Of a stretch of DNA of 55,675 bases, positions 35,223-44,785 are shown piece after piece. Numbering within the stretch: position 1 is the stretch's first letter; the number at the start of each line of letters is the position of its first letter. The notes under the pieces were generated by a model. The model made no database searches and was not told the origin of the DNA. It worked only from the letters and a program-made list of their open reading frames with translations. Both the position numbers and the translations under genes were made by a program. This stretch comes from an uncultured Azospirillum sp. (lineage in GTDB: Bacteria; Pseudomonadota; Alphaproteobacteria; Rickettsiales; UBA3002): positions 3,503 through 59,177 of the forward strand of contig CAZZCK010000003.1 of the NCBI GenBank assembly GCA_964652475.1, given 5' to 3'.

Positions 35223-36713
35223 ATGGCATCGCAATTAGCTCCTGCTTCTCAAGAAACCGGTCATTCACCAATCAAAACGCTCGGCGCACTGCTCGGGTTT
35301 GTAATTGCTGGCATCATGCTCACGCTGCCTGCACCCGAAGGACTAAGCGCCGACGGTTGGAAGGTGCTGGCCATCATGGCGCTGATGGTAATCTGGTGGT
35401 GCACCGAAGCCGTGCCGGTTGCGGCTACGGCCCTGATTCCGATTGTAGCCATTCCGTTGCTTGGTCTAGGCAATGTCGATGAGGCGGCGCAGGGCTTCAC
35501 TAACGAAGCGGTATTCCTGCCGCTCGGCGGATTTATTCTTGGCATTGCGATTCAGCGCTGGAACCTGCATGCGCGCATCGCCCTTGCCACCGTGCGTTTG
35601 GTGGGTACTTCGCCGATACGGGTGGTGGGGGGCTTTATGCTAGCCACCGCGCTGGTCTCGATGTGGATCAGCAATACGGCGACGGCGGTGATGATGCTGC
35701 CGATCGCGTTGTCGGTCGCCCATTTTTTAATGCGTGAGGGTCAAGGTAGCGAGCAAGATAAAAAACATTTCGGCATCTGCCTGATGATTGGTATTGCCTA
35801 TGCGGCGAGCATGGGGGGCATGATGACGCTGGTCGGCACCGGCACCAATGTGCTGTATAAAGGTTTTGTTGAGCAGCAGCTTGGAGTAACCATCGGCTTT
35901 GGGCAATGGATGCTGATCGGCGTGCCGATTGGCCTCACCATGTTGCTTGCCATCTGGATTGGGATGACACGCTTTATTTTTCCGACCCATCTCAAACAGC
36001 ATGATGCCATTGATGGCCTGATCGATAGTCAGGTGCGCGCGCTTGGCCCGATGCGTGCGCCTGAAAAACGCACCGCGGCTATTTTTCTGATCACTGCTTG
36101 TTTATGGATTTTTGGCGATACATTAAACTCTGTACTGTCGCCGCTGAAACTCAACGATGCCTCCGTTGCCATTGCCGCGGCGATTGCGCTGTTCCTCTTG
36201 CCTTCGGGTGAGGCAAAGGGCGAGAAATTGCTGCAGTGGCAAGACGCCAAGGAAGTGCCATGGGGCATTTTGATTTTGCTTGCCGGGGGCCTCTCCATCG
36301 CCGGGTTTATCGAAAGCTCGGGCCTTGCGCAGTGGCTTGGCAATCATGCCGCGGCGCTCGGCGATGTTCCGGTCTGGCTGCTGATTATTCTCGCCACCGC
36401 GACGATTATTATTGTCACCGAGTTGATGAGCAATGTCGCTACCCTCACCGCCAGCTTGCCGATCTTTGCCGCGACCGCCACCGGGCTTGGCACCGACCCA
36501 CTGGCCTTTACCATTCCGCTCGCGTTTGCGGCGTCGTGCGCCTTCATGCTGCCGATTTCGACGCCACCTAATGCGATTGTGTTCGGTTCGGGCTTGCTGC
36601 GCATTTCTGAGATGGCGCGCGCCGGGGTTATTTTCAACGTCGTGTCGCTGGTGGTGATTACGCTCCTGTGCGCATGGCTGGTGCCGCTGGTGTTTGCGCC
36701 CGTTGCTCCCTAA
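35223..36713 (+). CDS. DASS/SLC13-family anion:sodium symporter
   Basis: Duplicated hairpin motifs SNTATAVMMLPI and SNVATLTASLPI. 496 aa polytopic protein. Confidence 0.88.
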   Translation: MASQLAPASQETGHSPIKTLGALLGFVIAGIMLTLPAPEGLSADGWKVLAIMALMVIWWCTEAVPVAATALIPIVAIPLLGLGNVDEAAQGFTNEAVFLPLGGFILGIAIQRWNLHARIALATVRLVGTSPIRVVGGFMLATALVSMWISNTATAVMMLPIALSVAHFLMREGQGSEQDKKHFGICLMIGIAYAASMGGMMTLVGTGTNVLYKGFVEQQLGVTIGFGQWMLIGVPIGLTMLLAIWIGMTRFIFPTHLKQHDAIDGLIDSQVRALGPMRAPEKRTAAIFLITACLWIFGDTLNSVLSPLKLNDASVAIAAAIALFLLPSGEAKGEKLLQWQDAKEVPWGILILLAGGLSIAGFIESSGLAQWLGNHAAALGDVPVWLLIILATATIIIVTELMSNVATLTASLPIFAATATGLGTDPLAFTIPLAFAASCAFMLPISTPPNAIVFGSGLLRISEMARAGVIFNVVSLVVITLLCAWLVPLVFAPVAP

Positions 36714-38079
36714 GGGCTGCGGTGCGCGCGCCGTGAATGGCGGGGTCGGAGGGTGCCTCGCTTGTCGGTGGCAGTGGTCTGTCGGCGGTGCGAAGCTCGC
36801 GCTGCAAATGTTCATACACCTCGCCAAAGCTTAAGCCGTCATCCTTGATCGCGTGCTGATAGAGCGCGCTCAGTTTCGCTAAGGCGACATCGCGCTCTTC
36901 GGGCGGGATATGGTTAAGCGCCAAGGCTGCATGATGCTCGAGCTCATCCCAATCGACGGTTTTCGTCGAGAACGGCGCAAAGACTTTGGTCACAAATCCG
37001 GTCGCAAAGGCACAGACGGCAACAAAGCGCATCGGGCTTAAAATACGGATATCCGAAGGCCGGATCCCTTTCCAATTCTTCCACTGCATCACCTCGCTGA
37101 AGGGGCGATAATGCTTCTTGACCGAAGCGATCCCGATGCGGTCGAAATCGGCTTTGACCTCAGCAAAGCTACCGGTATGGATCTGTTTGAGATGCACCGA
37201 ATTGAGCATGTTGAAGGCCTGGCCGGTCCATTCCATGATGCCCGAGAGAATATTGCTGTTCTCGCGCAGTTTGGTCAGGCGTGACTTTTCCGATTCCGGC
37301 GTATCCTCGTCCTTATCGATCCCCGCGAAGGTCACAATTTTCGAGGACCATTGCAGATGCCCCATCGTCCGGTCGACCCAGTTATTGCCGCGCGTGCCGA
37401 GAAAAATCTGCGAGCCAAACTTCATCCCGTCGCTGATGATCATGTTATTGGCATTAACAAAGCGATTGAGCTTGCTTGCCTCACTCAAGGCTTTCGCTGG
37501 CGCTTTCACCTCGGCTTCGGTGGGCGCTAGGTAATCGGATTGCTCGCGTGTCAGCAGCAAATCGGCCTGATGGCGCAGCCGTTCGGTTTTGGCGCGATCG
37601 GTGCGTTGCTGCGTGCCATAGCCAACGGTAATCAGGTTCGAGGCCATGCTGATCGCCGAGGATTGGTTCAGCACCGGATTTTTTTCGCGGTATCCGGCAA
37701 ATTGCTGCATGATCTGGCCGAAGGTGCCGAAAATTCCCCGCCAGCGATTAAGGTCGCTTAGCCCCTGCGGCGCTTGTTTTGGCTGCGAGCTATCGGCCTC
37801 AAACCCGCCGCCCAGTGCGGTGGCAAGGGCTTGAATATCGGGGGCCTTATCGGGTGCAAAGCGATAGATGCGGGTGTGGTTTTTCTCGTGCGTCACATCG
37901 CATAAAAGCTTCGCATGCTGCGCGGCGAGGGTGGTATCGGCGGTTGAATCCGCGCCGTTTTGCATTTCAAGCACGCACAATACACCCTCACTGTCGCGCA
38001 GCATTTCAATGCGCGAGATGGGGGCATTCGCATGGCGATGTTTCAGGCGATTCACGCAACTCCTGGTCAAAGCACTCAA
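36658..38079 (-). CDS. Hypothetical protein (473 aa ORFan)
   Basis: Long uninterrupted ORF with no recognised motif. Its 3' end overlaps the convergent DASS gene by 56 nt. Confidence 0.55.
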   Translation of the reverse strand: MSALTRSCVNRLKHRHANAPISRIEMLRDSEGVLCVLEMQNGADSTADTTLAAQHAKLLCDVTHEKNHTRIYRFAPDKAPDIQALATALGGGFEADSSQPKQAPQGLSDLNRWRGIFGTFGQIMQQFAGYREKNPVLNQSSAISMASNLITVGYGTQQRTDRAKTERLRHQADLLLTREQSDYLAPTEAEVKAPAKALSEASKLNRFVNANNMIISDGMKFGSQIFLGTRGNNWVDRTMGHLQWSSKIVTFAGIDKDEDTPESEKSRLTKLRENSNILSGIMEWTGQAFNMLNSVHLKQIHTGSFAEVKADFDRIGIASVKKHYRPFSEVMQWKNWKGIRPSDIRILSPMRFVAVCAFATGFVTKVFAPFSTKTVDWDELEHHAALALNHIPPEERDVALAKLSALYQHAIKDDGLSFGEVYEHLQRELRTADRPLPPTSEAPSDPAIHGARTAALREQRAQTPAAPAMRTGA

Positions 38080-38370
38080 AAAAGCCGAGTGTCTCAGCCT
38101 TCAGGGTAGCAAAAATTGCCCCCAACCGCACCCGGGGATATGTGAAGTTTTTGTGACAAGAGCCATGCAATCTAGCCGCTTAACGCCTTAACAATCCTTA
38201 GGGTTATGGCCTTAAGCGACCCCATAACCAAGAAAATCAGCCAAATATTGATTCCGGCGGTGGTAAAAAATTGCGTCCCAATAGCAATCCCAAGTTGCAA
38301 GTCGTATATCGCATATCTATTATGCATGTCCGTGGTGTGTAACTCTAGCTATCGAGTATTTGAGAAAAAA

Positions 38371-38742
38371 ATGGATTTATTGAATGCGTGTATCGGCCAA
38401 CGACTTAGAAACTCTAGGCTGGCGGCCGGATTAACTCAATCGGATCTGGGTTCGATCGTGGATGTTTCATTTCAACAAGTACAAAAATACGAGCGTGGGT
38501 TGAATCGTGTTAGTGCGGTCGATCTTTATCATTTTGCGAAAGCACTCGACGTTCCGATCGCCTATTTTTTTGAAGATATGGATGCTTCATCCAACGCAAA
38601 GGCGCCCACCCTCGAGGTGGAAATGCTCAGCTTAACGGACCCCACCCTTATGAAAATGCTGCGGATATTCGTGGCGATTGAAGACCCCAAAATTAAAGAA
38701 AGCATTTTTAAGTTATTGAAATCAATAGATAAAAATAGATAA
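38371..38742 (+). CDS. XRE-family helix-turn-helix transcriptional regulator
   Basis: IGQRLRNSRLAAGLTQSDLGSIVDVSFQQVQKYERGLNRVS is a classic Cro/C1 HTH. Start moved to ATG 38371. Confidence 0.85.
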   Translation: MDLLNACIGQRLRNSRLAAGLTQSDLGSIVDVSFQQVQKYERGLNRVSAVDLYHFAKALDVPIAYFFEDMDASSNAKAPTLEVEMLSLTDPTLMKMLRIFVAIEDPKIKESIFKLLKSIDKNR

Positions 38743-38769: not shown

Positions 38770-39489
38770 ATGGACTTCTTAGCGTTTATCGAGAAAACGA
38801 ACGCCGCCCAGGACAAAGAAGAAGCGTTCGAAGCCTATCTTGGCGCACTGAAAACTTTTGGCTTAGACCGGGTTGTCTACAGCTACATGACCGACCACCC
38901 GCTGCTCGATAAAGGCACGCAGCACGGGGTCATTCGCAATTACCCGGATGAATGGATGAAGTACTATATCGAGAAGGGCTACACCGAGCACGATCCGGTT
39001 TATCAGGGCGCGCTGAAGTCGCCACGGCCTTTTGCCTGGAGCCAGATTGAAGAAAGGGAGCTCTCGTCGAAGCAACAATTGGTGATGAATCAGGCAAAGG
39101 AATCTGGTCTGCTGGATGGCATGGCGATGTCAATCCGTGGCACGATGGGAGAGTGTGTCGGGGTAGGGATCGCAAGCAGCACGGGTGGCGTGCGATACGA
39201 CAATAATCAGCTTTCACTTCTCTATGCGCTGACCAATCAGTTTCATCTGGTGCATACAGACTTTATGCTGCGCGAGACACTGCCCGCCGGCATTCAATTC
39301 ACCGAACGCGAACGCGAAATATTGCTGTGGGCGGCACGCGGAAAGAGCAATGCCGTGATTGCCGATATCCTCAGTATCACCGCGCACACGGTCGATTTCC
39401 ACCTGAGAAATATTTTCAAGAAGCTCGGGGTGAATACCAAAATACTCGCAACCCTAAAGGCCATTCGTCTGGGTCTTATCTGCCCCTAA
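38770..39489 (+). CDS. LuxR-family acyl-homoserine-lactone-responsive transcriptional regulator
   Basis: Autoinducer-binding signature residues (EWMKYY...HDPV...FAWS...G) plus C-terminal LuxR HTH (LTEREREILLWAARGKSNAVIADIL...TVDFHLRNIFKKLGV). Confidence 0.9.
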   Translation: MDFLAFIEKTNAAQDKEEAFEAYLGALKTFGLDRVVYSYMTDHPLLDKGTQHGVIRNYPDEWMKYYIEKGYTEHDPVYQGALKSPRPFAWSQIEERELSSKQQLVMNQAKESGLLDGMAMSIRGTMGECVGVGIASSTGGVRYDNNQLSLLYALTNQFHLVHTDFMLRETLPAGIQFTEREREILLWAARGKSNAVIADILSITAHTVDFHLRNIFKKLGVNTKILATLKAIRLGLICP

Positions 39490-40487
39490 CCCGGTGCCAG
39501 CAAATCGGCAAGGCGTGAAATATTCTTCACCATGGTGGTGAGGAATCGGGACGCTTCAGCGCCATTGACAAGGCGGTGATCAAAACTTAGCACCAGCGAT
39601 GCCGGATTAAGCGACGTAGCGCAGGAGCTTGGCAGCATGGGACTGCCGATGAATAATGTCGCAACCGATGGGTACACCACCACCGGAATGGCACGCCCGA
39701 TGCCATAGCTCGAAAGATCGGAGACAGCTACCGAGTGGTACTCGGTGATCGTATCGCGCATTTTTTGTGAGGAAGAAACTTGGAAGCGGCATAGATCAAT
39801 AAAATCATCAAGCGAAGCAGTGCAATCAACCGTAACGGTGGCAGTCCTGAGCTCGTTATTACCGCAATCAACCGCAATCCCGAGCTTACAGTCGTTGTGG
39901 GTCACATAGCGTTCATTATCGAGGATGCGCGAACGAAACGGTGGGTGATTCGACATGGCGTGTGCCGTCGCCCAACTGATAATTTCAACCGACTTGGCAA
40001 CCCGTAGCCCCTTCGATCGCATCGCGCGGCGTATGGTGTGAATGAGGCGCCAGTCGATCTGAACCTCGATCGATGCCGGCACCACCTGTTTTGCCGAATG
40101 CTCAAAGCTACGTATGAGCCGCTGTTGCATGGGCGAGAAAAACTGTTCATGCGCATTCGCCGTTGCCCGGTTTGGATGTGCAGGCACACGGATAGCAGGT
40201 GCAGACAATGAGCTGCCGACACTCACCGTAAAGTCCGCCTGCTCCGGTGAGGTGTCGATGACGACAAGCTCGCTGCCAACCGAAACTTCTTCGCAAGCGT
40301 TATACTTGTATTCTTTAATGATGCCGCTGACGGGGGATTCTATTTCCATCACCGCCTTGTCAGTCTCAAGGGTCAGCAGCGGCTCGTCGCGCATCACCCG
40401 ATCCCCGACTTTCTTGAGGTAATTGGCGACTTTCAGGGTGCGAATTCCTTCGCCAAGTTCTGGTGCGATCATCGAATAACTCTGCAT
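39486..40487 (-). CDS. Lipoyl-domain E2 acyltransferase of a 2-oxoacid dehydrogenase complex (no E3-binding domain)
   Basis: Lipoyl-lysine motif LETDKAVMEIESP. C-terminal 2-oxoacid_dh catalytic domain ending SFDHRLVNGAEASRFL. The ATG abuts the E1 stop. Confidence 0.85.
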   Translation of the reverse strand: MQSYSMIAPELGEGIRTLKVANYLKKVGDRVMRDEPLLTLETDKAVMEIESPVSGIIKEYKYNACEEVSVGSELVVIDTSPEQADFTVSVGSSLSAPAIRVPAHPNRATANAHEQFFSPMQQRLIRSFEHSAKQVVPASIEVQIDWRLIHTIRRAMRSKGLRVAKSVEIISWATAHAMSNHPPFRSRILDNERYVTHNDCKLGIAVDCGNNELRTATVTVDCTASLDDFIDLCRFQVSSSQKMRDTITEYHSVAVSDLSSYGIGRAIPVVVYPSVATLFIGSPMLPSSCATSLNPASLVLSFDHRLVNGAEASRFLTTMVKNISRLADLLAPG

Positions 40488-42488
40488 TTACTTCCCCACC
40501 GTTTGGGTGATCGCTTGCACGATACTATGCACCTGTGGCATCAGTGCTTCTGCGGTTTCGTTGTGGAAGGGCACCCATCCATCCTGTCGGCTCAGCAGGT
40601 GTGGGTGGGCAGTAAGGGCTGCCCATACACGCGCATCAACGATGCAGTGGCTAATAAGCGCCTGGCCAAGCGAGCAGGATTCGCTATCCTCCTGGACGAC
40701 CATGAAGCGGCCCGTTTTGATGATCGATTTGCGTACTTCTTCCATCTCCGAGAAGCGAATGGCGCGCAAATCAATTAACTCAACCGTGATCCCCCGCGCC
40801 GCTACCTGATCGGCGGCCAGCTCCGAAAGTTCTACACCGTTGCCCCAGGTAAGCAGGGTGATATCCTTACCGGGACGCGTGATGATCGGTTGTTCGGCAT
40901 ATAGCGGAATCACCGGCGCAGACTCAATCTTCACTTTTCTGAAAAATTGGCGTTTCGGTAAAAGTAACAGCACGGGATCCTCCCCATAGGCTGCGGTGAG
41001 TAGCTGTGATGCAGCATCCTGAGGGCTACTTGGAATGATCACCTTCAGGCCAGGCACATGGCCGAACCATGCCTCGTTACTTTGTGTATGCCAGGGGCCG
41101 CCGCCCGCAACATAGCCGCCATACGGTGCCATGATAATCATCGGGCATTGTTGCTTATTATCGGTGCGCCAGCGCAATGTAGCAATCTGATTAACCAACT
41201 GATTAAAGGCGGGGCCGACAAAGTCGATGAACTGTAATTCTATAATAGGAAACAGACCAGACAAAGCGAGACCGGAAGCGGTGCCTGCAATCGTGGCCTC
41301 TGCCAGTGGCGAATTGAAGACGCGGTGTGGGAATTGACTCGACATACCCCGCGTTAAACCGAACACCCCGCCTTTGGGATCCTCGATATCTTCGCCGAAG
41401 ATCACCACATCGTCGCGGGCGGCAAGTAACTGGCCTAGCGTGTGGTTAATCGCCTCTGCCATGGTCCAGCATTCCTTATCCGGTGCCAAGGCAGGGTAGG
41501 TGGGGGTATGCGTTTGGCCGAGCAGATGGGCGCTGACACTGGCGATGGTTGGGTCTTCAGCGGTGACCGCCCAGTCATACATCTGACGAACTTCGTTGGC
41601 GGCGCGTTCCTTCAAACTTGCAATGCGCGGTGGGGTGAGCATACCCCGCTCTAACAGCCGCTTCTCCAATCCTTGAATGGGGTCGCAATGCGCCGCGCAG
41701 GATTCGAGATCTTCGGCGCTGCGATACATACGCTGATCATCGGCCGAAGTGTGTGACATCAGCCGGGCACAATGCATCCACAGGATCCTCGGCCCTTTGC
41801 CCTGACGACACTCCTCCGCCAGCTGTTGTGCCTGTTCGAATACCTCTTGCACTTCCCACCCCATCACCTCAGTGGTGATGGCCTGGTTGAGCAAGCCCAT
41901 ATCGAGCGGTGTATTTCCCTTCGTGCACGTGCTGATGCCATACTTGTTATCCTCGATCACAAAAAGCACCGGCAGCTGCTTTTGTGTGGCAAAGGCCACC
42001 GCTTCATAAAACTCACCTTGGCGTGTGGCGGCATCGCCGATGCAGCATAGCACTACCTTGCTTTCGCCGCGGATTGTAATGCCCCATGCATGACCGACAG
42101 CGGGCAGGCATTGCATACCTGTCGGCGATGCGCACGACATGACATGCTGATCCGGCGCAAAGAAATGGCTGGCCATCTGGCGGCCGCCGCTGCTGGAATG
42201 CTTTTTCCCGAAATAATCAAGGGCAATCGTATCAAGCGGCGTCCCGCGCGCCAAAAGAAACGCGCGGTCGCGGTAATAGCAGTAGGCCGGGTCATCCGCG
42301 CGCAAGGCCGCGGCCACGGCAGCCATCGCCTCATGACCGGCGCTTGGAAGCTGGAATTTCCCCATGCCTTGCCGAAAGAGGATGCTTTCCCGCCGGTCTG
42401 CCTCGCGCGATACCAGCATGGTATGGTAGGCCTGCAGCATATCCAAAGCGGGCGGCGCGGCTTCATAGATCTGATGCTGTCGTTGCAT
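40488..42488 (-). CDS. Fused E1 alpha-beta thiamine-diphosphate-dependent 2-oxoacid dehydrogenase component
   Basis: N-terminal half has TPP motif GDAATRQGEFYEAVAFATQKQLPVLFVIEDNKY. C-terminal half is E1-beta/transketolase-like (VVIFGEDIEDPKGGVFGLTRG, NSPLAEATIAGTASGLALSG). 666 aa. Confidence 0.88.
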   Translation of the reverse strand: MQRQHQIYEAAPPALDMLQAYHTMLVSREADRRESILFRQGMGKFQLPSAGHEAMAAVAAALRADDPAYCYYRDRAFLLARGTPLDTIALDYFGKKHSSSGGRQMASHFFAPDQHVMSCASPTGMQCLPAVGHAWGITIRGESKVVLCCIGDAATRQGEFYEAVAFATQKQLPVLFVIEDNKYGISTCTKGNTPLDMGLLNQAITTEVMGWEVQEVFEQAQQLAEECRQGKGPRILWMHCARLMSHTSADDQRMYRSAEDLESCAAHCDPIQGLEKRLLERGMLTPPRIASLKERAANEVRQMYDWAVTAEDPTIASVSAHLLGQTHTPTYPALAPDKECWTMAEAINHTLGQLLAARDDVVIFGEDIEDPKGGVFGLTRGMSSQFPHRVFNSPLAEATIAGTASGLALSGLFPIIELQFIDFVGPAFNQLVNQIATLRWRTDNKQQCPMIIMAPYGGYVAGGGPWHTQSNEAWFGHVPGLKVIIPSSPQDAASQLLTAAYGEDPVLLLLPKRQFFRKVKIESAPVIPLYAEQPIITRPGKDITLLTWGNGVELSELAADQVAARGITVELIDLRAIRFSEMEEVRKSIIKTGRFMVVQEDSESCSLGQALISHCIVDARVWAALTAHPHLLSRQDGWVPFHNETAEALMPQVHSIVQAITQTVGK

Positions 42489-42506
42489 GAAATTACATCC
42501 GTAACA

Positions 42507-42848
42507 CTAGTTAATCGTGAAGCTTCTCACAGGCTTATACGCCAGTTGTAATTCTTCGATTTTCTTAATGATATCCTTACGGATCGAGTCGTTATCGACC
42601 GAGGCGAATTTGGCCAGAAACTCAATCGCCAGCATCAGGCTCTGATCGCCAAGCAGCCTGAGGCCTTGCCCGACATGCTGCTCATCGGCTTGGTTTTCGA
42701 TCCAATACAAAATATCGGAAGAGGCATTCTTGATGAGGCCCGATACGATCGACAGGTTCGAGGACTCGGCCTCATTGGCAAGATAGCTCAATCCTGCAAG
42801 GATCTGTTTGATAGCGTCTTCCTGACGTGTTGAAATACTGTTCTGCAT
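42507..42848 (-). CDS. Hypothetical 113-aa protein between luxI homologue and E1
   Basis: ORF fills the gap exactly (11 nt after the luxI stop, 18 nt before the E1 start). No family recognised. Confidence 0.55.
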   Translation of the reverse strand: MQNSISTRQEDAIKQILAGLSYLANEAESSNLSIVSGLIKNASSDILYWIENQADEQHVGQGLRLLGDQSLMLAIEFLAKFASVDNDSIRKDIIKKIEELQLAYKPVRSFTIN

Positions 42849-42859
42849 AACCTCTCGTG

Positions 42860-43504
42860 TTAGGCAACGGCTGCAACGCCGTCGCTGATGTAAACGCTGT
42901 ACCCATCGAGCACATTGCCCGTAATGCCTGAATGCGCGCGCACGGATGCAAGAATCTCTTCGGAAATGACCATCTCGCCGGCGACTACACGCTCGTTCTT
43001 ACGCAGTTCCTCAACCGGCCCGATAAAGCGGATCGGCCAACCCGCGTTAATGAACACGGCGCGCCAGATGGGCGGCGGCATCACTCCGATGAAGGCGTGG
43101 ATGTTGTTCTCCAGGCCATATTCGAGGAACGCATGAATAAGCTCCGCATGGATGCGTTTTCGCATTTCAATGGGCAGCGATTTATCGATACAGAAGCGCG
43201 AGGCTTCCCAGATATCGCTGCATTTCGGCAGGTCGATCGTCGTCACCAGATGCGGCCAGATCTCCTCGAGCATGTAGGGGCGCGAGGTCGGGACAATACG
43301 CGTGGTGCCGCGCACAATACCCTTGTAGTCGCGCCAGGCGAAGTAGACCGTAGCGGGTGTGTCGTAAGTATCCCATTCCATATTCTTGAAGATGGGGACT
43401 TCGTAGCTTTGGCGCTCGACGAACGACTTATACCGAAGCCGATACATCGACGGTATGATATCGCCAAAGAAATGCGCACTTTCCAGCGATGTGACAGTAA
43501 TCAT
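42860..43504 (-). CDS. LuxI-family acyl-homoserine-lactone synthase
   Basis: Aligns by eye to LasI-type blocks: RLRYKSFVERQSYEV...MEWDTYD...GTTRIVPTSRPYMLEEIWPHL...IWEASRFCI. Start set at MITVTS (ATG 43504). Confidence 0.88.
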   Translation of the reverse strand: MITVTSLESAHFFGDIIPSMYRLRYKSFVERQSYEVPIFKNMEWDTYDTPATVYFAWRDYKGIVRGTTRIVPTSRPYMLEEIWPHLVTTIDLPKCSDIWEASRFCIDKSLPIEMRKRIHAELIHAFLEYGLENNIHAFIGVMPPPIWRAVFINAGWPIRFIGPVEELRKNERVVAGEMVISEEILASVRAHSGITGNVLDGYSVYISDGVAAVA

Positions 43505-43555
43505 AGAGCCCCCATGACGTGTGGGTGCATCATGCAAAAAAGCTCTCGGGCGCGT

Positions 43556-43590
43556 AACCTACGCACCTACGTAGGGGCGGTTCGTACAGG
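43556..43590. promoter_or_regulatory. Candidate lux-box-like operator region upstream of the luxI homologue
   Basis: Perfect 10-bp palindrome CCTACGTAGG (43566-43575) flanked by AACCTACG (43556-43563) and CGTACAGG (43583-43590), 52-86 nt upstream of the ATG. Confidence 0.35.
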
Positions 43591-43649
43591 AGAATTCGGT
43601 AGTTTCAACCCATGGCGGCGAATGACACCCCATTCTTTTGTGTACAGCT

Positions 43650-43678
43650 AAATTTATAAGTTTGTTTCCAAATTTATA
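43650..43678. promoter_or_regulatory. Direct repeats AAATTTATA (x2, 20-bp register) upstream of the cI-like repressor gene
   Basis: 43650-43658 and 43670-43678 read directly, 41-69 nt upstream of ATG 43719. Candidate operator and/or promoter elements. Confidence 0.3.
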
Positions 43679-43718
43679 CACGCATCTTCTGCCTGTTTCG
43701 CGCTATAGTGCCCGCATT

Positions 43719-44309
43719 ATGGGGAATAATTTACGCAAACTGCGCGAAGAGCGGGGCCTTACCTTACGAGATATGGCGGATAAAACTGGCTACTCGTTTT
43801 CGCAGATCCAGAAGCTTGAAATGGGTGATCGTCGCCTGAGCTTTGTCTGGAAGCAGCGCTTAGCCACGGTGCTCGAATGCCACCCGGACGACCTGGATAG
43901 CGAAGATGCCGGCATTCATGTGCCGATTGTGGGCGTACTCGGGGCCGGTGCAAAAGTAAAGCTGGCGCAGCCTTCCGGTAAGGGGGGCGGGCTATCCGAA
44001 CCGGCGGCGCCGTCTGGCTTCAACCCCAAGAAAACCGTGGCGATTGAGGTGAAGGGCGACGCATTGGCCCCCCTGATTTGCAATGGATTTCGCCTCTATT
44101 ACGAAGACAAAATTTACGGCGTGCCGGAAGAATTTCTCGGGAAGATTTGTGTCGTTGAAGTAGAGAGCGGGCAGGTTTATGTCAAAATTCTGCGCAAAGG
44201 TAGTAAGCTTGGCTACTACCATCTCGAGAATGTAAACCCGAACGACCCACCGCTTCTCGATGTCCGCATCAAATGGTCGGCGAAGGTGCGCTTCTGGGAG
44301 CAGCCGTAA
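43719..44309 (+). CDS. cI/LexA-like repressor (XRE HTH + S24-peptidase-like domain lacking the Ser nucleophile)
   Basis: HTH LRKLREERGLTLRDMADKTGYSFSQIQKLEMG. The C-terminal domain has VKGDALAP where S24 proteins have GDSMxP. Start moved to ATG 43719. Confidence 0.8.
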   Translation: MGNNLRKLREERGLTLRDMADKTGYSFSQIQKLEMGDRRLSFVWKQRLATVLECHPDDLDSEDAGIHVPIVGVLGAGAKVKLAQPSGKGGGLSEPAAPSGFNPKKTVAIEVKGDALAPLICNGFRLYYEDKIYGVPEEFLGKICVVEVESGQVYVKILRKGSKLGYYHLENVNPNDPPLLDVRIKWSAKVRFWEQP

Positions 44310-44422
44310 GCACCGGTTAGTAGAAATTCCGGTACGTATTGTTCTGCATTTACCCTACCCCACCAGAAATTTGTATACAAATGTGTACTTTTTAGCTATG
44401 TCTCGATTACACAGACCGAGAT

Positions 44423-44785
44423 GTGGTGATGAAAGATACAGCGATCCATGTTCTTGACCGCCTGGCAAATGGCGTGCACCCCATGACGGGTGAGATCTTC
44501 GCGGCCGATTCGCCGTATAACGATCCCACCGTCATCCGTAGCTTGTTTTTTGCCCTTCAGCATTTGCAACATGCTACGCTTGATAAGCGGCGGAAGCATC
44601 ATGAGCGGGCATGGACGCTGGATCAGCAGCAGTTCGTCGCCGATGCGTATCGTGAGGGCGCTTCACTGATCTATATCGGAAAAACACTGAAACGCAGCCG
44701 CAGCTCTATCCGTTCGGAGTTGGTGCGCCAAGGCTTGTTAGCGCAAGCAACGTATGGGGATAGCGATGACCAGGAAATCCTATAA
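44423..44785 (+). CDS. Hypothetical protein (120 aa)
   Basis: ORF with plausible coding sequence. The basic C-terminal part (KTLKRSRSSIRSELVRQGL) may be a small DNA-binding helix region. Not assigned to a family. Confidence 0.5.
   Translation: MVMKDTAIHVLDRLANGVHPMTGEIFAADSPYNDPTVIRSLFFALQHLQHATLDKRRKHHERAWTLDQQQFVADAYREGASLIYIGKTLKRSRSSIRSELVRQGLLAQATYGDSDDQEIL

Follow-up and report, generated by a model that had tools for sequence, protein, structure and literature searches.

A luxI operon that also encodes a fused E1 and a short lipoyl E2: a recurrent module and possible acyl-precursor supply for a homoserine-lactone synthase

Can the operon of an acyl-homoserine lactone (acyl-HSL, AHL) synthase carry the enzymes that make the synthase's own acyl donor? 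To our knowledge, the AHL synthases characterised so far take that donor from general metabolism, be it the synthesis of fatty acids, the breakdown of amino acids or the import of aromatic acids. For the coenzyme A (CoA)-dependent synthases known to us, general catabolism or aromatic acids of exogenous origin provide the acyl-CoA, and we know of none with E1/E2 genes in its operon. The question is raised by a locus in a 55,675-nucleotide (nt) stretch of contig CAZZCK010000003.1 from an uncultured Azospirillum sp., hereafter the window. On the minus strand, four open reading frames (ORFs) run head-to-tail: luxI, the first operon gene, which has an ATG start and encodes 214 amino acids (aa) with a PF00765 domain (42860-43504); an ORF for a helical protein of 113 aa (42507-42848); a gene for a fused alpha-beta E1 component of a 2-oxoacid dehydrogenase (E1ab; 40488-42488, 666 aa); and a gene for a short, lipoyl-bearing E2 (39486-40487, 333 aa). 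The intergenic gaps are 11, 18 and 0 nt, and the E1/E2 junction reads GGGGAAG-TAA-ATG. This layout, described in the first-pass annotation of the window, was confirmed to the base from the ORF list, as was the overlap of the E2 stop codon with that of a convergent canonical luxR gene (38770-39489, plus strand; Autoind_bind and GerE domains): the CTAA at 39486-39489 holds the luxR TAA and, on the opposite strand, the E2 TAG. The annotation had gone further and proposed that E1/E2 makes the acyl donor of LuxI. We assign a probability of roughly 0.5 to the reading that E1/E2 supplies an acyl precursor to LuxI, augmenting or redirecting the supply of a synthase that can also draw on cellular pools.

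The module is not confined to the window. A word-indexed set of 5.8 billion proteins gave 15 LuxI matches at 48-60% identity. Among the first three neighbourhoods of LuxI relatives, two unrelated contexts showed the order luxR-luxI-ORF of ~110 aa-E1ab-E2, and the third showed luxR, luxI and an ORF of 103 aa, then a transposase. A pattern scan of 185,579 species genomes yielded a well-delimited LuxI clade of ~49 loci at 33-59% identity, with members in Rhodospirillales-like metagenome-assembled genomes, Magnetospirillum, Caenispirillum, Insolitispirillum and Micavibrio; beyond the clade, identity falls to 32% or less, which corresponds to ordinary Rhodobacterales-type LuxI. A metagenome scan added ~70 further clade loci. 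Using tblastn with the window proteins, we found E1ab-E2 directly 3' of luxI and the small ORF in loci L001, L002, L006, L008, L017, L086, L087, L088 and L170 (L numbers are our locus labels), and four truncated contigs (L091, L101, L138 and L159) still include the opening stretch of E1. The search for luxI beside E1/E2 genes in other genomes, suggested along with the original proposal, thus returned the order luxR-luxI-small ORF-E1ab-E2 in no fewer than 13 independent loci besides the window, with LuxI proteins 43-60% identical to the one encoded there. These linked loci occupy unrelated genomic contexts, and their genes often overlap at stop and start codons (in L001, E1 and E2 share 8 nt; in L087, the small ORF and E1 share 17 nt). 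None of 31 outgroup loci with ordinary LuxI (L055-L085) had E1 or E2 within 10 kb. Judged from gene order, the arrangement is beyond chance.

We compared LuxI and E1 in distance-based, unbootstrapped trees, and each of the two sets the linked genes apart from unlinked relatives. The fused E1 family is very large, with 6,842 matches at E <=1e-10 and 45-52% identity across phyla, and its tree was built by neighbour-joining from the best 120 matches together with the locus-derived sequences. Within the upper ~48 leaves, every E1 with an inspectable neighbourhood was LuxI-linked (14 out of 14), and relatives from Methylobacterium, Armatimonadota, Fimbriimonadales and similar sources formed a separate large group. 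The LuxI tree contains a tight linked subclade (the window, L086, L088, L002, L006, L087, L001, L091 and L008, with L094/L095 nested inside) and a second, basal linked subclade (L017, L101 and L170). Because the E1 tree shows the same two-subclade split, the module appears to have been inherited together.

Pfam places E1_dh, Transket_pyr (transketolase-like Pyr) and Transketolase_C (C-terminal) domains of the window E1 in one chain, and its closest solved structures are the branched-chain E1s of Thermus and Pseudomonas putida and the pyruvate dehydrogenase (PDH) E1 of Geobacillus. Its thiamine diphosphate/Mg motif, GDAATRQGEF...EDNKYGIS, is conserved across 121 family members (as EDN(K/G)YGIS), and the other core motifs are kept too. 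The E2 comprises a Biotin_lipoyl domain (E 4e-17) and a 2-oxoacid_dh catalytic domain (E 2e-20). Despite an overall identity of only ~32% among E2 homologues, the lipoyl lysine K44 (LETDKAV; ETxKA) is invariant and the catalytic motifs FDHRLVNG (FDHxxxNG) and VSDLS (with the serine of SD(M/L)S) are conserved in 10 out of 10 homologues aligned. The Asn that replaces Asp in the His motif also occurs in Azotobacter E2p. We did not find a peripheral subunit-binding domain in the window E2, which gave no E3_binding match in Pfam or NCBIfam and has only a ~35-residue linker between its two domains; nor was the domain present in the E2s of the homologous loci inspected. An E3 gene was likewise absent from the window locus and from nine complete homologous loci. 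With a fused E1, an E2 devoid of the peripheral subunit-binding domain and no E3 gene, the pair does not form a conventional bkd, pdh or acetoin operon, which answers the earlier concern that it might be an ordinary catabolic bkd or acetoin enzyme. The bkd complexes of P. putida, Thermus and human resemble the window in that their branched-chain alpha/beta chains are nearest to its E1 and in the lipoyl Lys and catalytic His and Ser of E2; the window departs from them in the three features just named, in having no BkdR-type regulator and in the position of the genes inside a luxI operon.

Relatives of the pair stand in biosynthetic surroundings. In Methylobacterium sp. Leaf87 (L089:2320-10862), a homologous E1ab and short E2 head a fatty-acid/polyketide-like cluster with genes for a methyltransferase, a FabD-like acyltransferase, a FabA/ApeI-like dehydratase, a ketosynthase (KS), a ketoreductase (KR) and an acyl carrier protein (ACP). 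The E1ab proteins of this cluster and of L171, described next, are 46-48% identical to that of the window; the Methylobacterium E2 is 32% identical over its full length, with the same FDHxxxNG motif. In GCA_020357715.1 (L171:1-13995), a fused E1ab precedes a lone 95-aa lipoyl protein without an E2 catalytic domain and a 4HBT thioesterase; its neighbours include genes for a P450, a radical-SAM protein, KASIII, an acyl-CoA ligase, PaaA/C and MaoC, and a luxR-luxI pair lies 5 kb from E1ab, its LuxI being a distant clade member (35% identical). An Armatimonadota-type contig carries E1ab alone among housekeeping genes. Unlike L089 and L171, where KS, KR, dehydratase and ACP or KASIII and a ligase are at hand, the window offers LuxI as the sole candidate for a downstream consumer. 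By analogy, the fused E1/short E2 family appears to have been recruited repeatedly as a starter-unit supplier at the heads of pathways, and these biosynthetic contexts provide the best independent support for precursor supply.

The window LuxI is an acyl-HSL synthase homologue with predicted activity. PF00765 matches residues 18-184 (E 1.4e-23), a profile of the clade matches LasI, BjaI, TofI, MesI, RpaI and EsaI, and an AlphaFold2 (AF2) model (pLDDT 84.5) has the GNAT-like AHL-synthase fold. Nine out of ten catalytic and S-adenosylmethionine-site residues are kept (R24, F28, E43, D45, D48, R69, E100, S102 and R103). Position 34 (codon ~43403-43405) is Tyr instead of Trp in the window and in 55 out of 102 clade members, a conservative aromatic change at a residue usually described as invariant in LuxI proteins (PMC3704786). 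The start codon could lie further upstream, at a TTG at 43537; all homologues instead start at the MI(I/T) of the ATG. As far as can be predicted from conserved motifs, the catalytic residues of LuxI, E1 and E2 are intact, with the Trp34-to-Tyr change in LuxI as the only exception.

In a Foldseek comparison of the LuxI model, the top seven matches were MesI, BjaI and RpaI (TM 0.78-0.83, E 1e-16 to 6e-15), with a root-mean-square deviation (rmsd) of 2.1 A for BjaI; TofI, LasI and EsaI came next (TM 0.65-0.77, E 2e-14 to 4e-11, rmsd 3.1-4.8 A), so the margin is small. By alignment alone, the pocket residues of the window LuxI read G-V-M...W, comparable to A-I-M...W-W in BjaI and unlike T-V-T in LasI. 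In the pocket helix, H119, G120 and L123 are common to both linked subclades and differ in the sister group without E1/E2. BjaI of Bradyrhizobium makes isovaleryl-HSL from isovaleryl-CoA. Like BjaI, RpaI, BraI and MesI, the window LuxI belongs to the LuxI family and may use a short or unusual acyl thioester from amino-acid metabolism; BjaI, RpaI and MesI are its best structural matches, and it shares Met and Trp with the BjaI type at the pocket-aligned positions. It is unlike all four in falling into a separate clade and in having Tyr for Trp34.

The operon is preceded by a plausible site for its own control. A lux-box-like palindrome, CCTACGTAGGTGCGTAGG (43558-43575, minus strand), followed by TTACG, is centred ~62 nt 5' of the luxI ATG. 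At -55 to -77 of luxI, a palindrome of 16-20 nt followed by (G)TTACA also occurs in L001, L002, L006, L008, L086-L088, L091, L095, L010 and L011. The arm sequences vary between loci while the position is kept, so these palindromes fit LuxR boxes with co-varying specificities. The palindrome at 43558-43575 is probably the LuxR site of the operon promoter, a candidate at which binding is predicted. The adjacent LuxR has strong domain matches (Autoind_bind, E 6e-26; GerE, E 1e-16) and contains the pocket residues YPDEWMKYY...HDP, FAW and DG, mapped by eye to TraR W57, Y61, D70, P71, W85 and G113. In almost all related loci, luxR adjoins luxI. Within the operon, promoter-like and terminator-like consensus sites numbered 4 and 8, compared with 6.1 and 5.8 in shuffled sequence; because they are no commoner than in shuffled sequence, they provide no argument for internal transcription signals.

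We favour precursor supply because the module is co-inherited and translationally coupled, its active-site residues are intact, its architecture is stripped, its relatives are biosynthetic and H119, G120 and L123 mark the linked synthases. In such a scheme, signal-bound LuxR would activate the operon promoter. E1 would decarboxylate a 2-oxoacid derived from an amino acid, by homology nearest to the branched-chain type, and the acyl group would be loaded on the lipoyl arm of E2. The E2 catalytic domain would then transfer it to a pantetheine thiol, most simply that of CoA, and LuxI would couple the resulting acyl thioester to S-adenosylmethionine, giving a short or unusual acyl-HSL. A housekeeping E3 would reoxidise the lipoyl arm. 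A single positive-feedback loop would thereby embrace both the making of the signal and the provision of its precursor. The initial claim that E1/E2 makes the acyl donor of LuxI is partly supported: the co-inherited module under a lux-box-like site and the biosynthetic relatives speak for supply; acyl-CoA as that donor, and the branched-chain or aryl-acetyl group proposed with it, are candidates.

Several observations weigh against this reading. Of the 63 distinct clade loci for which 3 kb or more of downstream sequence was available, 8 carried E1/E2, and the four truncated contigs come on top; three of these eight loci had been fetched via E1 matches, so the unbiased share is ~1/10. About nine out of ten clade members therefore lack the module, which speaks against an obligatory role. 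The sister synthases of L004, L009-L011, L092 and L096 are 48-53% identical to the window LuxI and have no E1/E2; the genes downstream in those loci (RmuC, response regulators and H+-PPase) are unrelated. In the clade members without E1/E2, we found no alternative acyl-supply enzymes downstream, and RmuC, response regulators, PPK2, H+-PPase or ADH were encoded there instead. L094/L095 have lost E1/E2 and kept an intact luxI, and L127 and L032 have the H-G motif without E1/E2. Branched-chain E1 and PDH E1 score similarly against the window E1, and its substrate is thus not readable from homology. Regarding the donor, the comparison of the synthase with BjaI and RpaI that had been called for went the other way: in a rough neighbour-joining tree with partial reference sequences, the window LuxI clade is separate from the BjaI/RpaI/MesI group and is not nested among the recognised CoA-utilising synthases. 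With the profile of the clade, the ACP-type LasI and the CoA-type BjaI obtain equal scores (E ~2e-27). CoA-utilising LuxI proteins group phylogenetically and show no conservation of basic residues along the helix that binds ACP (LasI 146-173), above all at position 9 (PMC4234381). In the clade, the pattern is mixed: a basic residue stands at position 5 in 9%, at position 4 in 69% and at position 9 in 50% of members; in the linked loci, position 4 is basic in 100%, and the window LuxI has Asn at position 9; outgroup LuxI proteins are 100% basic at positions 5 and 9. Taken together, this mixed evidence leans towards a CoA-type donor. As an add-on to a LuxI clade that evidently works without it, E1/E2 is more likely to boost or redirect precursor supply than to be indispensable.

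The same distribution would suit a different role, in which E1/E2 is cargo of the operon, a metabolic output under quorum-sensing (QS) control, such as density-dependent 2-oxoacid oxidation, that does not feed LuxI. In most clade members, luxI and the small ORF are followed by unrelated genes, and the sister LuxI proteins without E1/E2 and the loss in L094/L095 would be expected of cargo; in the literature, the luxI-phyH linkage of Sphingomonadaceae is read simply as a QS-regulated operon member (PMC3704786). However, co-divergence with the synthase over two subclades at 43-60% identity and the kept translational coupling would be unexpected for cargo, a pair stripped of the peripheral subunit-binding domain and E3 is unlike a bulk catabolic complex, and the relatives of E1/E2 sit in biosynthetic clusters. 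We regard this explanation as unlikely.

A further question is whether the acyl group passes through CoA at all. E2 might load holo-ACP, or LuxI might take the acyl group directly from the S-acyl-dihydrolipoyl arm; the loading of QncM by QncL in quinocarcin biosynthesis is a model for the former. Without an E1/E3-docking domain on E2 or an E3 gene, the pair may not cycle as a dehydrogenase complex; the lone 95-aa lipoyl protein beside the E1ab of L171 makes a lipoyl arm serving non-E2 enzymes plausible in the family; and one or two basic residues are still present in the LuxI helix that corresponds to the ACP-binding one of other synthases. On the other hand, the catalytic Ser and His of E2 are strictly conserved in all LuxI-linked loci, which argues for transfer to a free thiol acceptor; the operon encodes no carrier protein, its small ORF having no conserved Ser; and the fold comparison tilts to the CoA-type synthases. 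A route without CoA thus seems distinctly unlikely. Its boldest form is a very long shot: the E2 lipoyl domain would itself serve as the acyl carrier for LuxI, an enzyme whose usual substrates present the acyl moiety on a pantetheine arm, or E2 would load a non-CoA carrier, so that 2-oxoacid oxidation would be stoichiometrically coupled to a new HSL class and would bypass the CoA pool. We also hold it to be very unlikely that E1/E2 clears 2-oxoacids arising as by-products of signal turnover or methionine salvage (2-oxobutyrate or 2-oxo-4-methylthiobutyrate), or that it makes a second molecule, for example of the acyloin type. This idea draws only on general chemistry: methylthioadenosine is a by-product of LuxI, and 2-oxoacids of this kind are substrates of branched-chain-type E1s. 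No methionine-salvage, lactonase or acylase genes accompanied the module in any locus, and conservation of the lipoyl-E2 makes acyl transfer a better fit than the release of an acyloin.

Precursor supply by a branched-chain 2-oxoacid dehydrogenase has parallels in other signalling systems. At the esg locus of Myxococcus xanthus, a branched-chain E1 is needed for the E-signal, and branched signals of the diffusible signal factor (DSF) family likewise draw their skeleton from branched-chain dehydrogenase. By analogy, the role proposed for the window pair would resemble both, in that such an enzyme would be the carbon-skeleton source of an intercellular signal; unlike the window, esg involves a housekeeping-type E1 alpha/beta that feeds fatty-acid synthesis, makes no AHL and lies outside a synthase operon.

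Our search of the full-text literature, from which subscription journals were outside coverage, found no description of a luxI-E1/E2 locus, in agreement with the first-pass annotation, which knew of no QS locus of this architecture. Each component is of a familiar kind, and the novelty lies in how they are combined and in the conservation of that combination. If precursor supply is true, this would be the first built-in precursor supply for an AHL, and signal output would be tied to amino-acid/2-oxoacid pools. It would point to unrecognised acyl-HSL structures in poorly studied Rhodospirillales-like Alphaproteobacteria, which are known mostly from metagenomes; culturable relatives of the core system exist in Magnetospirillum, Caenispirillum and Insolitispirillum. 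The comparison also defines a clade-wide, unannotated small partner of LuxI and a family of fused E1/short E2 proteins that are apparent starter-unit suppliers. The four-gene cassette is small enough for direct expression and assay.

The small partner is the 113-aa ORF. By an iterated profile search, almost every locus of the clade has a homologue of 60-120 aa that begins 0-100 nt beyond the stop codon of luxI (for example, L001:8636-8971, L004:3986-4297 and L124:1465-1800). Present with or without E1/E2, the family is better conserved than any other partner of this LuxI and has the core LxYLxxEA...A..I..A. It is rare: only 24 relatives were found among 1.84 billion representatives, a word-based protein search returned the query alone, and there was no match in Pfam, NCBIfam or PDB sequences. 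The protein probably plays an accessory or regulatory part alongside LuxI. We considered and rejected a carrier protein, suggested by an ACP-like LGDQSL stretch, as neither 5 nor then 71 homologues had a conserved Ser, and there was no conserved Cys. A TraM-like or other known fold was also discarded, a single-sequence AF2 model giving a low-confidence four-helix bundle without a significant Foldseek match, and the apparent relative P0147 (1416 aa) proved to be a spurious repeat match.

Some members of the LuxI clade have another enzyme gene as neighbour. In 18 out of 63 clade loci (L086:5707-6609; L018, L035, L037, L040-L043, L046, L048-L051, L102, L125, L128 and others), a PhyH-family Fe/2OG dioxygenase gene immediately follows luxI or immediately precedes luxR, and the products are 40-66% identical to each other; L086 carries both PhyH and E1/E2. 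The PhyH archetype acts on acyl-CoA. A luxI-phyH linkage has been recorded for novI-phyH in Sphingomonadaceae (Novosphingobium), with no function assigned (PMC3704786). Like the window, novI-phyH has a LuxI gene adjoining the gene of an acyl-CoA-type tailoring enzyme of unproven role; it differs in that the enzyme is a dioxygenase, not a dehydrogenase complex, and the window has no phyH.

In most linked loci, an ORF of 164-186 aa without a significant Pfam match follows E2 (L001:12003-12545, L087:10018-10539, L088:10020-10580 and L002:12327-12821); it is absent from the window. L094/L095 retain this ORF directly after the small ORF (in L095, ~400 nt after luxI) although E1/E2 are gone, which suggests a clean E1-E2 deletion.

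Upstream of luxR in the window lies a gene for an XRE-family helix-turn-helix regulator (38206-38742, plus strand; HTH_3, E 1e-9). XRE homologues of 108-128 aa stand beside luxR in L001, L004, L086, L087, L088 and many other loci; given these lengths, the true start is probably the internal Met at 38371, giving 123 aa, rather than the start chosen by the ORF finder. The convergent orientation of luxR in the window reflects an inversion of the XRE-luxR pair relative to most loci. Next to the XRE gene, the window, L001 and L088 carry giant or unknown ORFs; when compared with one another, these proved unrelated.

Within ~10 kb of the window locus, we found no E3, PhyH or other helper genes; the 10-kb flanks carry transporter, PutA and chemotaxis genes. 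The closer flanks (43638-44785 and 36658-38079) encode a CI/LexA-like XRE-S24 repressor, an HTH_38 protein and a 473-aa ORF without homologues. In the profile at 37-40 kb, GC content drops to ~0.50, compared with 0.57-0.59 in the surroundings, and the homologous loci L002, L004 and L170 adjoin integrase, transposase or toxin-antitoxin genes. The flanking genes, the GC dip and these neighbours of homologous loci suggest that the window locus is a mobile island.

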